From Candidatus Harpocratesius repetitus (GTDB lineage Archaea; Asgardarchaeota; Lokiarchaeia; Sigyniarchaeales; Promethearchaeaceae), in the NCBI GenBank assembly GCA_021498095.1, contig JAIZWK010000001.1, forward strand, positions 4,170,001-4,202,000: DNA of 32,000 bases. Reading direction: 5' to 3'. Below are positions 15,418 to 21,714 of this stretch, in pieces (positions within the stretch are counted from its first letter, which is position 1; each line of letters starts with the position of its first letter). A program made the position numbers and the translations under genes. The notes under the pieces are model-generated. The model did not search any database and was not told the origin of the DNA. It saw only the letters and a program-made list of their open reading frames with translations.

Positions 15418-15465
15418 AAGAAAGATGGCGCCCGATCGGGATTTCCGTTTCCATTGTTATAACAG
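15418..15465 (-). repeat. Duplicated tRNA-Asp 3' end including most of the T-loop intron (distal attachment site)
   Basis: Identical to 19670-19718 except for a 1-bp deletion in the acceptor-stem run (ccc vs cccc on +). Confidence 0.92.
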
Positions 15466-15652
15466 CGAATCAGTAATTATCCACTGAGATTTTTGCAGAA
15501 TGGAGAAAAATTGCGGGTGTAATAGAAAAAAACAAAAAGATTTAATTCATCCCTTGCTTTGAAAATTCATCAGTTTCATCTCAAATTTGGAAAAAATTTC
15601 ATCAAAAGTATAAATTTTAAACAATAATAAAAATACATATTATTTTCATATT

Positions 15653-16885
15653 TTGAAATTAATTGTTGAATTAAAGCAGCGTTATTTGTTGTATCGTAAG
15701 TTGGAGATAGGAGATAATGATTTGCGGACAATGTTTGGATTGTCAATATTTGAAATTAGTACTCTTGACCGTTTAGCACCTTTATATAAAGAAATTGCAC
15801 AATTATTTATAGATGAGACCTTTCGAGATTTGAATGTGCTTGGAAAAACAATAGATTTATTCAAATATTTGCAAATCTCAAGCAGTGGTTATAGATATCC
15901 TCCTCGACGTACTACATTAGATATTCTAATTCGGTTTAAAGCAGCAACTATCGCAGGTTCCAGTAAGCAACTTAAATTAGCAGTTATGTTTGAGTGTTTA
16001 GGATTTGGAAAGTTAGCTTTTGGCGATTTATACGCACCTAAAAAAGATGCATTTGCTCTTCTCATGACTGCACTGGGTTATCCAATAATTTACACACCTT
16101 ACAGTGATGCAAGTTCAATCGGCGGATATTATGAAGATCTCGCGAGTACTCGCTATATTGGTCATATTGCACCTTATTTAAAGCAAAAATTTCAGGTGGA
16201 TGAGTACAGTCGAGCTTTGGCAATTGGATTGCATAATGGTTTGAATTATATGGAAATTTTCGAACGGATGTCCCGTACGGATGCAGCAACTGTTGTCGGT
16301 AGTGATGGACAGTCACATGCTCTACTTGATCAAGATGGAAACCCTTTGGTTGATGAGAACGGAAATCCATTAAATTGGTGGGAGGTTTTCGGATTTGATG
16401 ATCCAGAACAAGCAATAGCGCTTCAAGAGGCGTTTGGTCTGAAGGTGGATAAGGATAACGGGAATTTTGTCGAACCTATTGTGATTCGAAGGGTTGTTAA
16501 TGGGAAAGAGCAGTTTGAGATAAATGATGTTGCGTTTGATCACCGCACAATTTTATATGAAAAAAAAGATTCAAATGGAAAGCTAACAAAAACAATTCCA
16601 ATTTTGCATGATATGCGCCAATGGTGGGCGAATCTGCTCCAATCGGGAATGGCAGAATTCCAGCTGCCGATGATACCTGAATTTGCGCAGGAGTATAACA
16701 GCAAGAGGGCTTGGCTTAAGAAATTTTTTGCGATTGATTTGGGATATGGTGGAAAACCAAATAATATTATTCTCCAGCCATCAATTAATGAACTTCTTGC
16801 TTTATTCTTAAGAAATTCCAAGAAGATTCCTGTAAATCCATTTTATCCAATTGCTCAGTTAGATCCTCCTGAAGATCGGCTGTGA
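15653..16885 (+). CDS. Orphan 410-aa ORF, probably the C-terminal fragment of a larger gene
   Basis: Long open frame with no in-frame ATG near its 5' end (frame opens after TAA at 15611); visibly less AT-rich than neighbouring host genes; oligo-T at 16895-16900. Confidence 0.6.
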   Translation: MKLIVELKQRYLLYRKLEIGDNDLRTMFGLSIFEISTLDRLAPLYKEIAQLFIDETFRDLNVLGKTIDLFKYLQISSSGYRYPPRRTTLDILIRFKAATIAGSSKQLKLAVMFECLGFGKLAFGDLYAPKKDAFALLMTALGYPIIYTPYSDASSIGGYYEDLASTRYIGHIAPYLKQKFQVDEYSRALAIGLHNGLNYMEIFERMSRTDAATVVGSDGQSHALLDQDGNPLVDENGNPLNWWEVFGFDDPEQAIALQEAFGLKVDKDNGNFVEPIVIRRVVNGKEQFEINDVAFDHRTILYEKKDSNGKLTKTIPILHDMRQWWANLLQSGMAEFQLPMIPEFAQEYNSKRAWLKKFFAIDLGYGGKPNNIILQPSINELLALFLRNSKKIPVNPFYPIAQLDPPEDRL

Positions 16886-17102
16886 GTTACTGTGTTTTTT
16901 CAATTTTAAAATTATTTTAATTTTTTCAATTTTTGGAACAATGTGGTAATAATTATGCATAAAATCACAGGAGCGTTAAATTTAAAATGGAAAACTCTAT
17001 CGTTAATGTATATATATGTATACTTATAATAAATTTCATTAATATATTTTTGAAATTGGTTAATAAAGCAATAGAAATTAAATATTATAAGTGAGAAATA
17101 AC

Positions 17103-18719
17103 ATGGTAGATTCAAATGATTCATATGAACAATTAAAAAAAAAATATTCATTTTTCTTTAGTAGACATTATTTACCCCTTCTTGAAGCGCCAAATCCTTA
17201 TCTTGAAGTGGATTATCCATTAGTGGAACAAGAAGAAGAACTATTTCGAGCGGGTTATGAGGCAAGTGGGCGAAAGACAGGGTATCGACAAAATTTAGAG
17301 ATAAAGGGCCCCATAAATAGTTATAGCTTTTTAAATAATTATCCTAAACTTAAACGGATTGAATTATCTGATTCATGTCTTACGAGCTTTGAAGGAATGC
17401 CTATTTTACCTGAGCTGCGTTACTTTCTTATGAATTGGAGTTGTATTCCAAATTTTGAACATTTTCCAGAATTGCCTAAGGTAGAAGTGCTATTAATCCA
17501 TACATTCATGCAATCTTTTGAACATATGCCCGTTTTTCCTCGATTGAAGCGGTTAGCAGTCAGTACAGAGTTAAAAAATTTTCACCATTTCCCATTACAA
17601 CCAGTTTTAGAAAAACTTATCGTAAGTACAAATAAGTTGGTTTCATTTGAAGGTATGCCTGTGCTTCCCCGGTTAAAAATGCTCGATGTGAGTGATAATT
17701 TTCTCACCTCTTTTAAAGAGTTGCCACCCCATCCAAATTTGAAAGAGTTAATAGTAAGTGCGACCATGCCATATATTGATACTAATGAACGTTCCTATCT
17801 TGAAGAGTGTTACCGGCAACGCAACAATCACATTTGTTCTTTTGAAGAATTTCCGATTTTTCCTCGTTTGGAAACAATCTGGGCAGAACGTATCGGCTTG
17901 GAGTCGTTTGCCGGTATGCCAAAGCTTCCTAAAGTCAAACGGTTATATTTGAAGGATAATTCCATTCGTTCTTTTGCAGAACTTCCTTCACTACCTGAAT
18001 TAGAATATATTGATCTGAGTAATAATAAAATTAAAACATTAGATGGGATGCCTCTGCTTCCAAATTTACGAAGTTTAACACTCTGCGGCAACCCGATAAA
18101 AAATGGTGCTGCTCTAAAAATATTAAAAGAAAAAGCACCTCGTCTTAATGACTTGGATTTACGCAATTCTCCGCTTGAGACCCTTGAAGATTTTCCCAAA
18201 CCTCCCCATTTAAATAGTCTTTGGCTTGAACATACTCAGATTAAATCATTGGCTCCGCTTTACGATTTCAAAGGATTAAATTATCTTTTTTTAAAGAATA
18301 CACCACTTCAGACATTAGCAGAGATGCCAATCATCTATAGAACACCAGATCATGGTGAAGTGATTGATATCGATCCGCTTGGAGAAGATTATTCTGTAAT
18401 AGAAGGTTGGAATTTAGATTTACCATGGGATTTTTTAAAAAATATCCCAGATTCTGTTTATCAATGGTATAAAAATAAGCAGTATGACAAATTTACAGCA
18501 TATTATCATGTAAAAACGTCAGAACTTATCGATAAAGCACAGCATGATAAATTAGATCCGCTTTACTATCCGCGAATTGTTCAAGAATCTTCTCCTGAAG
18601 TGCAGCATTTTCTAATTAAAAAACTTGGAAGACAACATTCATTAAGCAAGCTTTTAATTGAGAATTTGGTGAATTTAGAAGTTCCTATAAAGAATGGGGA
18701 TTTTTCAATCAAATTGTAA
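17103..18719 (+). CDS. Leucine-rich repeat protein (about 14 LRRs of ~22 aa) with a helical C-terminal domain
   Basis: Repeats such as LEYIDLSNNKIKTLDGMPLLPN and LKMLDVSDNFLTSFKELPPHPN. ATG at 17103 is preferred over GTG at 17091. Confidence 0.9.
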   Translation: MVDSNDSYEQLKKKYSFFFSRHYLPLLEAPNPYLEVDYPLVEQEEELFRAGYEASGRKTGYRQNLEIKGPINSYSFLNNYPKLKRIELSDSCLTSFEGMPILPELRYFLMNWSCIPNFEHFPELPKVEVLLIHTFMQSFEHMPVFPRLKRLAVSTELKNFHHFPLQPVLEKLIVSTNKLVSFEGMPVLPRLKMLDVSDNFLTSFKELPPHPNLKELIVSATMPYIDTNERSYLEECYRQRNNHICSFEEFPIFPRLETIWAERIGLESFAGMPKLPKVKRLYLKDNSIRSFAELPSLPELEYIDLSNNKIKTLDGMPLLPNLRSLTLCGNPIKNGAALKILKEKAPRLNDLDLRNSPLETLEDFPKPPHLNSLWLEHTQIKSLAPLYDFKGLNYLFLKNTPLQTLAEMPIIYRTPDHGEVIDIDPLGEDYSVIEGWNLDLPWDFLKNIPDSVYQWYKNKQYDKFTAYYHVKTSELIDKAQHDKLDPLYYPRIVQESSPEVQHFLIKKLGRQHSLSKLLIENLVNLEVPIKNGDFSIKL

Positions 18720-18829
18720 ATAAAAGTTCTTTAAAATGCTCATTTTAGCTAAATTATTTTTAAAAAGCATCAGTAGAGCCGAAAATGGCTTTCTAAGGTA
18801 GATAATACCAAATACGCAGATTGCGGTAA

Positions 18830-19546
18830 AAGAAAACCTTAAAATTTCATTCACTCACGAAGGGAATTTATCGTGCTTTGAAAATTCATAACTTTGTAGC
18901 ATGGCGGAAATTTATCCATCCTTCGATTGACAGGATCTATTTTGATAGAGAGTTGTACATCACCAAACTGGTTTCAGAATTAGAAAAAAAGGGGTAAAAA
19001 ATATATTTTTTCGACCAAAAAATTACACAAGTAAAATATAAAATGACTCAATATTTGCATGGACAGAAAGGATTTCTCTCAAAAATTGTTTTTGTTCAGT
19101 CAAATTAGTATTATCTGAAACAGACAAGCACTTTTGTGCGCTTTCTAATTATCGAAAAGAAAAATGAAATGTCTTGGAATATTAGAGACAAATTTCAAAA
19201 ACAACTATTGACAGAATCGGAAGCACTTAAAAAATTAGCAAGTTCTATCACAACATATAATCCGTGGAAATATCAAAAAACTTGGGTAAGGTACTTGATT
19301 CGAGAATACAAAAGACGCTGGAACATCAAAACTGGATTTTCAATGTTAAATTTCATCCATATCTCAAGCAGATCACGCATTTTTTAAGCAAAACTCGTAG
19401 ATATTTATGCAAGAGCAATTTTTTATAATTGGTGACAGTCTTGGAGGGTTTTTAGAATAAAAAAAGTATATCATCATAGAAATTGCACTCTAAATGAATT
19501 TAAATACTATGCTTCAGACCAGATCTGCAAAATTCTAAAAGACTAG
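18830..19546 (+). pseudogene. Degraded DDE transposase, IS4 superfamily (ISH3-like)
   Basis: Hand translation across stops and frameshifts: IDRIYFDRELYITKLVSELEKKG, then KYIFSTKK, YKRRWNIKTGF (Y..RW.IE motif with E->K), and IFYNW*QSWRVF...KILKD*. Confidence 0.7.
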
Positions 19547-19694
19547 AAATGGAAAGTAATAATTTTTAATAACGAATTTAAAGGATGGAATGAAAGTGAA
19601 GATAAATAAAAAATCTTAAAGGTGGAAATAAAGAAACAAAATATATTAAATACTTATTTAATCACAGAGAAGAAAGATGGCGCCCCGATCGGGA

Positions 19695-19722
19695 TTTCCG
19701 TTTCCATTGTTATAACAGAAAG
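19695..19722 (-). other. 28-nt tRNA intron at position 59/60 with canonical BHB motif
   Basis: Central helix TCCG/CGGA, 3-nt bulges AG^C and AA^T, flanking helices GGG/CCC and TTTC/GAAA. Confidence 0.88.
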
Positions 19723-19765
19723 CTCGGACCCGAGTCGAGGGAGTGACAGTCCCCCATGCTGACCG

Positions 19766-19790
19766 TTCTGCCCTTCTTCTCCAAGAAGGC
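19766..19790 (-). other. ~25-nt D-loop tRNA intron (15/16 or 16/17) with relaxed BHB-like motif
   Basis: Hairpin CCTTCTT-GGAG-AAGAAGG inserted between TAG and CGGTCA; the central helix is imperfect, so the splice point is uncertain by 1 nt. Confidence 0.75.
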
Positions 19791-20152
19791 CTACACTATC
19801 GGGGCAAAGTTGTTGTGATTAATTAGATTAACCAACTAAGAAAAGTAAAAGCGAGATGCTATTAAAAATTTTTGGTGGGTAATTTGAACAAAGAAATGTA
19901 AAAATTCTTTAATAATATTAAAAAATGTCAGAATTCAAAAAAAATCTCAAAATTAGGTAAAAAATTGAAGTAAATTTCAACTATTTTTTAAGGTAATAAA
20001 AATATAGTTTTAACATTTTAATATACAAAAATAATAATTGTATAGGAAAATGTGATGCAAAAAGTGAAACCTTATAGTAATAATCTATGATACAAAATAA
20101 ATAAACTTAATATAATAGAATAATAAACATTGTATGTATAGGATTTTGCGGG

Positions 20153-20785
20153 GTGGAATTTTTGAATAATAAATCGTATCAAAATTATGATTTTAAATCT
20201 TTAAAGCAAATTTTTCAAAGAAATTCTTGGTACATGACCCGCAAGAATTTACTTAAAACAGGTCTAAATAGATACGATCTTGAGAAATTGGTGCGAAATG
20301 AAGTAATAGCTAAAGTTACATCTAAGTTGTATAAATGGAAGAATATTAACTTTGGAGAATATGAAGATCTGATTGATATATCTGTTATAGAACCAAGAGG
20401 AGTATTTTGTCTTTATACTGCCATGGATTTTTATAAATTATCAACATTTGTCTCAGATAAATATTACCTGGCAATTCTCAGAACAGATTGGGTCCCAAAA
20501 GGTCTTGAGCAATATCCTGTTATAATAAAAAAGTGGATAAGAAGAACTTTTTCTTTAGGAATAGATCTTCAGAAAGTTGGGAAAAATACAATCAGAATTT
20601 ATAATCTTGAAAAAACGATATGTGATTGTGTCCGGTATCGGAATGAACTTGGCTTAAATACTTTGAAAGAGATTCTTACTTCATATCTTCAAAAAAAATC
20701 GAAAGATTTGCAAAAATTATATCTTTATGCTGAATTACTCGGTATATCTAAAATTCTTAATAATTATTTAGGAATGATTTTATAG
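20153..20785 (+). CDS. abiEi: Type IV toxin-antitoxin antitoxin, AbiEi family
   Basis: N-terminal wHTH; PRGVFCLYTAMDFY.LS; IRIYNLEKTICDCVRYR; KLYLYAELLG. Confidence 0.88.
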   Translation: MEFLNNKSYQNYDFKSLKQIFQRNSWYMTRKNLLKTGLNRYDLEKLVRNEVIAKVTSKLYKWKNINFGEYEDLIDISVIEPRGVFCLYTAMDFYKLSTFVSDKYYLAILRTDWVPKGLEQYPVIIKKWIRRTFSLGIDLQKVGKNTIRIYNLEKTICDCVRYRNELGLNTLKEILTSYLQKKSKDLQKLYLYAELLGISKILNNYLGMIL

Positions 20786-20790
20786 ATTAG

Positions 20791-21714
20791 GTGGTTAAGA
20801 TTACATCCAAAAAAGTTAAAGATTTAGGTGCTTCCATTCTTGCGCGATTAAAGAACCATGCGAAAGAAAATAAAATTCAACCTCGAATGATCTACTTAGC
20901 CTATATTTTTGAAAAATTCCTTTATCGGGTTGCAATTTCAAAATATAGATCAAAATTGGTATTAAAGGGAGGTGTTTTACTATATTGCGAAAATTGGAAT
21001 TTTAGACAAACAACAGATATTGACTTTTTAGGACTTTCACTTTCAAATAAGGTCTCTAATATAATTCAAATAATTCAAGAGATTTGCACAATTCCCTGTA
21101 ATGATCCTCTACAATTTTATGTAGATGATATCTCTATTCAAGAAAATATGATTGATGACAAATATAATGGATTTAAAATTACAATTCCTGTTTCACTTTC
21201 AACCTTAAAGGAAAAACTGAATATTGATATAGGTTTTGGTGATGTTATATATCCAAATCCAAGATCTTTAAATTATCCGATATTGTTCAAAAAAGAGAAT
21301 AAATCAATAATAATACAAGCATATACAATAGAATCATTCGTTGCAGAAAAAATTCATGCTATCTATTACTTAGGTGCCTTTTCATCAAGAATGAAAGATT
21401 TTTATGATTTATATTGTATTGCAGAGTATAAGACATTTGAATTGATGGATTTACTTGAAGCAATAAAATTAACATTTAAAAAAAGAGATACTAAAATACA
21501 AAGTAGAACTTTAGAGAATATTTTAGATGATGATATTTGGAATCAAAGATTTATTCAATATTGTAGAAAAAAACATATTACCATTATCCCATTTGAAGAT
21601 GTATCAGAAAGAATAAAAAAATGGCTTTTACCAATATTTAAATTAATCGAAGAAAATAAGCCAAACACAACTCTAACTTGGGATAACCATTTATTCTTAT
21701 GGAAGGCAAATTGA
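20791..21714 (+). CDS. abiEii: AbiEii-family nucleotidyltransferase toxin
   Basis: LVLKGGVLL, RQTTDIDF, IDIGFGD, AEKIHA, SRMKDFYDL; 5 nt downstream of abiEi. Confidence 0.92.
   Translation: MVKITSKKVKDLGASILARLKNHAKENKIQPRMIYLAYIFEKFLYRVAISKYRSKLVLKGGVLLYCENWNFRQTTDIDFLGLSLSNKVSNIIQIIQEICTIPCNDPLQFYVDDISIQENMIDDKYNGFKITIPVSLSTLKEKLNIDIGFGDVIYPNPRSLNYPILFKKENKSIIIQAYTIESFVAEKIHAIYYLGAFSSRMKDFYDLYCIAEYKTFELMDLLEAIKLTFKKRDTKIQSRTLENILDDDIWNQRFIQYCRKKHITIIPFEDVSERIKKWLLPIFKLIEENKPNTTLTWDNHLFLWKAN

Follow-up and report, generated by a model that had tools for sequence, protein, structure and literature searches.

A predicted tRNA-Asp(GUC) gene with introns in the D-loop and the T-loop in the Asgard archaeon Candidatus Harpocratesius repetitus

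Positions 19678–19805 of the window (the whole stretch of 32,000 nt that was analyzed) raised the question of whether a functional tRNA gene lies at a site where standard tools report none and, if so, where its introns begin and end. The first-pass annotation had placed a tRNA-Asp at this site, had claimed that its cloverleaf forms only after a 28-nt insert in the T-loop and an insert of ∼25 nt in the D-loop are removed, and had expected annotation tools to miss it. On the raw DNA, both programs did so: ARAGORN found no tRNA anywhere in the whole 32,000-nt window, the Rfam tRNA model gave no match around the site at the gathering score and none at E ≤ 10, and the whole-genome search with RF00005 gave no match at the locus. 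When the DNA was spliced in silico, ARAGORN reported a 75-nt tRNA-Asp(gtc), only with both inserts deleted; with either one insert deleted alone, no tRNA was called. The removal of both inserts is needed, as claimed, and the coordinates given earlier were exact, with the gene on the minus strand. The features are listed in Table 1.

The failure of detection was not peculiar to this gene. Intron-free orthologues were detected by RF00005 at 64 and 60 bits and an orthologue with an intron at 37/38 at 45 bits; among the tRNA-Asp gene and the orthologues compared, 0 of 3 genes with non-canonical introns were detected. ARAGORN likewise recovered the intron-free orthologues and the one with the 37/38 intron. 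Where an orthologue had just one intron at a non-canonical site, ARAGORN and RF00005 also failed; one such intron suffices to defeat both ARAGORN and the Rfam tRNA model.

Table 1. Positions in the window of the predicted tRNA-Asp(GUC) gene, its parts and the adjoining insertion.
Feature	Position	Strand	Content or basis
Pre-tRNA-Asp(GUC), 128 nt	19678..19805	(-)	Sequence; ARAGORN after in silico splicing; 28 orthologues with all stems paired
Exon 1, 15 nt, pre-tRNA nt 1-15	19791..19805	(-)	Acceptor 5′ strand, U8 A9, D-stem 5′ strand GUGU, A14 G15
Intron 1 (predicted), 25 nt, pre-tRNA nt 16-40, D-loop 15/16	19766..19790	(-)	Relaxed BHB and orthologues
Exon 2, 43 nt, pre-tRNA nt 41-83	19723..19765	(-)	D-loop remainder, D-stem 3′ strand, anticodon arm, variable loop, T-stem 5′ strand, T-loop 54-59 (UCCGAG)
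Anticodon GTC, in exon 2	19747-19745		Anticodon loop CUGUCAC; variable loop of exon 2, 4 nt
Intron 2 (predicted), 28 nt, pre-tRNA nt 84-111, T-loop 59/60	19695..19722	(-)	Strict hBHBh′ and orthologues
Exon 3, 17 nt, pre-tRNA nt 112-128	19678..19694	(-)	U60, T-stem 3′ strand, acceptor 3′ strand, G73, CCA
Encoded CCA, 3′ end of the tRNA-Asp gene	19680-19678	(-)	
Direct-repeat copy A (att-like)	19670..19718	(-)	Intron 2 (its final 24 nt), exon 3, trailer (8 nt); BLAST, alignment
Direct-repeat copy B (att-like)	15418..15465	(-)	Acceptor 3′ strand with a one-base deletion; BLAST, alignment
4.2-kb insertion relative to G002	15466..19669	(.)	tblastx synteny; 410-aa ORF, 542-aa leucine-rich-repeat protein, 83-aa ORF

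The identity of the tRNA was deduced from the predicted spliced product. With its arms parsed, it carries G73, the anticodon G34-U35-C36, C38 and a G10-U25 pair. G73, the GUC anticodon, C38 and G10-U25 are identity elements for AspRS, and all of them were found here together with a complete cloverleaf. The spliced region contains 68% GC in a genome of 31% GC, and it stands out as a GC-rich island. Judged on its sequence, 19805–19678 encodes a tRNA-Asp(GUC), with non-canonical introns at two sites and none at 37/38.

The two inserts were compared with the motifs of archaeal splicing. For the T-loop insert, a textbook BHB motif had been described, and the fold and the geometry scan showed the strict form. 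The minimum-free-energy fold of the precursor contained a strict hBHBh′ motif, with which the geometry scan agreed and which was the best-scoring motif of the region in that scan. The motif has an outer helix of 5 bp (the T stem), a central helix of 4 bp (TCCG/CGGA), two 3-nt bulges (AG^C and AA^T, with predicted cut sites at the carets) and an inner helix of 8 bp; this geometry was found at 0 of 2,000,000 random genome positions. The D-loop insert, described earlier as a hairpin of ∼25 nt, was found to comprise 25 nt with a 7-bp inner hairpin. Its central helix (GUGU/GCAG) forms three of four pairs, with a G-G mismatch, its bulges are AG^G and AA^C, and the exon-side outer helix is absent; it has the relaxed BHB form and not the strict one. 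The end of this intron, GCAG-AA, is a near-copy of the 3′ strand of the D-stem and pairs with G10-U13. At the boundaries fixed by the orthologues, the chance of such a geometry (H ≥ 3 with a 7-bp inner helix) is 1–3e-4. The relaxed motif definition alone was too permissive, giving well over a hundred matches in 168 nt, and the case for the D-loop intron therefore rests on the orthologues and not on the motif.

To place the boundaries independently of the splicing motif, orthologues were used: the precursor was BLASTed against 40 relatives, and 28 orthologous loci were then parsed, representing 23 distinct mature sequences. In one species of the same genus (G001; L017:607-708), the D arm (GTGTAGCGGTCAGCAT) and the T arm are both uninterrupted, and a 30-nt intron is located at 37/38. 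In a second species of the genus (G002; L004:1484-1589), a 31-nt intron occupies the identical 15/16 site of the D-loop, and the T arm is continuous (TCGGG TCCGAGT CCCGA). The junctions predicted in the first-pass annotation, GTGTAG^CGGTCA and TCCGAG^TCCCGA, were both found contiguous in the DNA of same-genus orthologues. Three intron layouts of the same tRNA are therefore present within one genus, namely D-loop plus T-loop (window 19678–19805), D-loop only (G002) and 37/38 only (G001), with exons that are near-identical across the three species. The D-loop introns of G002 and of the gene analyzed here have nothing in common beyond position and a 3′-terminal GCA(N)AA.

The same comparison bears on a second way of reading the D-loop insert, in which the gene works and its T-loop intron is accepted as above, and the D-loop insert either leaves as a 23-nt intron at 16/17 (giving the D-loop AGGACGGUCA) or is taken out by some process different from the usual EndA cleavage of a relaxed motif. 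We consider this unlikely. The 23-nt excision, one base inward on each side, has an equal motif score, its cut-site pair scoring the same or slightly higher (H=3, inner helix of 6 bp, outer helix of 1 bp), and its product is likewise accepted by ARAGORN as a tRNA-Asp, whereas the chosen 25-nt motif is the one that has no outer helix and one central mismatch. The 25-nt excision, however, yields the D-loop AGCGGUCA, which matches exactly the uninterrupted D-loop of G001 and is also produced from the unambiguous 31-nt intron of G002; moreover, the bulge pattern AG^N ... AA^N recurs at 15/16 in seven distinct orthologue introns. Because the 23-nt excision would give a D-loop that is absent from the genus, we prefer the predicted 25-nt intron at 15/16.

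Among the orthologues, an intron at 15/16 ending in GCA(N)AA was found in G002 and five others. At the 59/60 site, 16 distinct orthologues carry an intron, and the central pairs of positions 54–56 are always formed. In 15 of the 16 distinct 59/60 introns U55 faces an A, whereas in the tRNA-Asp gene analyzed here C55 faces a G. This is a two-sided change, in exon and intron, that keeps the central helix, and such compensation argues that the BHB helix is under selection. Across the order, further intron positions were observed in tRNA-Asp (∼21–24, 37/38, 45–49 and 53/54), and no intron was observed in three genomes, although the automatic parsing is uncertain in some cases.

The first-pass annotation had inferred that the host needs an EndA able to cut relaxed motifs and had proposed that the EndA architecture be typed. 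Searches of the closed genome with PF01974 and PF02778 gave exactly two EndA-family genes, one catalytic and one structural. EndA alpha (210 aa) had its best match in A. pernix EndA alpha (3P1Z_B, E 9e-33) and keeps the Tyr/His/Lys triad; its Crenarchaea-specific loop, GIPVGIRKPKTEPF, can be aligned gap-free with that of A. pernix, GQPLDVEKPRGADF, a Lys falling on Lys44. EndA beta (230 aa) has Tyr→Phe and His→Ala changes at the catalytic positions, as in structural beta subunits. The same arrangement is found in the A. pernix enzyme (PDB 3P1Z; Kaneta et al. 2018, PMC5829648), which has two paralogues, an alpha subunit with the triad and the loop Lys44, and a beta subunit that lacks the Tyr and the His. 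The best identity of the EndA described here to solved structures is moderate. Asgard EndA has been described as an (alpha-beta)2 enzyme with an L1 loop, linked to the cleavage of relaxed motifs (Kaneta et al. 2018, PMC5829648). The genome is predicted to encode an (alpha-beta)2-type EndA, which is the type that the expected cleavage calls for, and the range of substrates of this enzyme is one that we infer. RtcB is encoded by one gene in the genome.

A route of processing can be proposed from these parts. The locus would be transcribed as a precursor of ∼128 nt with two archaeal endonuclease-type introns. In this precursor, the 3′ end of the T-loop intron, CGGA, would pair with T-loop positions 54–57 (UCCG) and form a canonical BHB atop the T stem, and the GCAG of the D-loop intron would pair with G10-U13 and, together with the 7-bp intron hairpin, form a relaxed BHB. 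In each 3-nt bulge, the cut by the (alpha-beta)2 EndA would fall behind the second nucleotide; the three exons would be joined by RtcB into the 75-nt tRNA. Whereas the gene, its boundaries and motifs, its copy status and the enzyme genes can be read from the sequences, we infer the cleavage and the ligation.

Copy status was examined in the closed 4.36-Mb genome, since the first-pass annotation had stated that another intact tRNA-Asp(GTC) elsewhere, together with the lack of a spliced product, would make this copy a pseudogene. Four methods gave none. A second tRNA-Asp was absent from the ARAGORN output with intron search; BLAST of the precursor against the genome matched its own locus and a 41-nt repeat only; the BHB-aware genome scan gave a single Asp locus, the gene at 19678–19805; and the scan for GTC anticodon arms gave one arm in a GC-rich context, which lies in exon 2. 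Single copy here means that no other copy was found by these four methods, of which the genome-wide BHB scan is a rough one that failed to recover some tRNAs. The census by BHB scan plus ARAGORN, which otherwise serves only as context, recovered 35 loci, some of them mislabelled (a Tyr gene was called Ile), and among them were a Leu(UAA) gene with two introns and an Arg(UCU) gene with a D-loop intron.

Other loci were noted during these genome scans. ARAGORN reported a tRNA-SeC(tca) at G000:C1:1668826-1668915 (Rfam tRNA, 31.8 bits) and an intron-containing 'tRNA-Pyl(cta)', which is doubtful, at G000:C1 751326-751433 (Rfam tRNA, 29.3 bits). The anticodon-arm scan also returned a hairpin-like word of 17 nt, CTCTGCTGTCGTCGGAG, at six places of the genome (e.g., G000:C1 1173128, 1594177, 2092267, 2323280, 2465703 and 2846096), which probably belongs to a dispersed repeat or to an insertion sequence.

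The exons themselves were conserved. In the 28 orthologues, the acceptor, anticodon and T stems contained 0 non-pairs, with several types of compensatory pair. One position deviates from the consensus: in the T-loop UCCGAGU (within 19723–19734, minus strand), the near-invariant position 55 is C, so that the consensus U54-U55-C56 is broken, and U55 was present in 32 of the 35 tRNAs parsed from the genome. C55 is common to all three species of the genus, and a distant orthologue (L009) also has C55 (UCCAAAU). Because it is common to the genus, C55 is read as a lineage trait rather than as damage.

The 3′ part of the gene is one arm of an att-like direct repeat. The two copies match at 48 of 49 nt, with one deletion, and the repeat starts 4 nt inside the T-loop intron. 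Copy B lies 4.2 kb downstream of the tRNA gene and ∼150 nt from a chorismate mutase gene. Since the distance from the tRNA 3′ end to the chorismate mutase gene is about 175 nt in G002 vs. 4.4 kb here, the DNA between them is regarded as an insertion, and repeats of the 3′ part of a tRNA gene thus surround DNA that is missing in a relative. As far as they are summarized in PMC8813620 (after Williams 2002), integrative elements that target tRNA genes have the same arrangement, a tRNA 3′ repeat around a strain-specific insertion directly downstream; the 4.2-kb insertion differs from them in that its repeat begins within an intron and in that it contains no recognizable integrase. Searches of the insertion with Pfam, PHROGs, ESM Atlas and stop-to-stop frames revealed no integrase or recombinase, and no long degraded frame was seen. 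The 410-aa ORF belonged to no known family in the Pfam, PHROGs and ESM Atlas searches; its N-terminal ∼190 aa show a weak likeness to parts of very large proteins of the same genome and of two others, which is not a likeness to recombinases. One of these weak matches (G000:C1:959267-959602; L037) falls within a 10,103-codon open frame in the same genome, where a giant protein is apparently encoded. Just upstream of the tRNA gene, within 20153–21714, a gene for an AbiEii-type nucleotidyltransferase toxin (20791–21714; Pfam E 1e-37) was observed; a 210-aa ORF that matches no known family comes before it and could be its partner.

The position of the repeat allows the T-loop intron and the integration to be put in order. 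That the element carried the intron in was considered and rejected, given that both copies of the repeat hold the same 24 intron bases. As both copies contain intron sequence, the intron is older than the integration, and the sites of host and element must both have been intron-bearing before it. The site of the element matched the intron-bearing allele, and the intron gave the tRNA-Asp gene no shield from integration. Within the genus, only the species analyzed here carries the T-loop intron (1 of 3). There is a slight chance that the locus records an interplay of mobile elements and tRNA introns. If this were true, intron-bearing tRNA 3′ ends borne by elements could seed or fix introns in host genes (e.g., by gene conversion), which would be a route of arrival; the route of intron arrival is treated as an open question in a recent Asgard census.

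That the locus is a pseudogene, a former tRNA-Asp broken by two insertions (perhaps tied to the adjacent integration) and yielding no tRNA, is very improbable: the adjoining mobile-element-like insertion and the off-consensus C55 speak for it, but in the closed genome, where GAU and GAC have to be decoded, no replacement tRNA-Asp was found by the four methods, the exons are (near-)identical to those of same-genus orthologues with every stem paired, both inserts have precise splicing geometry, C55 is genus-wide and occurs in L009, and decay, in the form of a 1-nt deletion, is seen in the displaced repeat rather than in the gene. Taken together, 19805–19678 is very probably a functional and apparently sole tRNA-Asp(GUC) gene, the precursor of which, with its two endonuclease-type introns, would be spliced to a 75-nt tRNA.

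Several features of this gene are known from other archaea. In three complete Asgard genomes, 92–95% of tRNA genes bear introns, often non-canonical and often multiple (Valentin-Alvarado et al. 2024, PMC11291895). According to Goswami et al. (2026 preprint, 10.64898/2026.10.13.758758), 25–30% of the intervening sequences in Asgard archaea go undetected by tRNAscan-SE, for the most part those in the D arm; the same work places Asgard inserts at BHB motifs, reports frequent gains on terminal branches and finds the two-paralogue EndA to be widespread (10.64898/2026.10.13.758758). The interrupted tRNAs of these two studies (PMC11291895; 10.64898/2026.10.13.758758) resemble the present gene in having several short non-canonical introns per gene at BHB sites, in D-arm inserts that escape annotators, and in gain and loss between close relatives. 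The published studies, however, center on Atabeyarchaeia and Freyr-/Jordiarchaeaceae, whereas the host described here is of the Lokiarchaeia type, a kind with a lighter burden. As far as the accessible text of those Asgard studies extends, neither this tRNA-Asp gene nor its turnover within the genus (D-loop plus T-loop, D-loop only, 37/38 only) is cited.

The first-pass annotation had associated multi-intron tRNAs with archaea of the Thermoproteales type. A layout of that type is indeed present here, but it is not specific to Thermoproteales, being documented in Asgard archaea (PMC5829648, PMC11291895, 10.64898/2026.10.13.758758). As relayed in PMC11291895, the multi-intron tRNAs of Thermoproteales (Sugahara et al. 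2008; Marck & Grosjean 2003) share with the present gene the D-loop and 59/60 introns, the combination of strict and relaxed (HBh′-type) motifs, and an (alpha-beta)2 EndA bearing the Crenarchaea-specific loop. The Thermoproteales belong to another phylum, and the present genome shows no sign of intron families copied between tRNA genes; by precursor BLAST, no copies of either tRNA-Asp intron were found elsewhere in the genome above chance.

Heavily interrupted tRNA genes, missed D-arm introns and the EndA type were all known before for Asgard archaea. Because these have been published, the tRNA-Asp gene is a further example of a known phenomenon, and it leaves the published view of Asgard tRNA introns unchanged. 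The tRNA-Asp of the three species provides a clean case of intron turnover that is independent of the splicing motif, and a closed Asgard genome would seem to be without any tRNA-Asp if this locus were overlooked.
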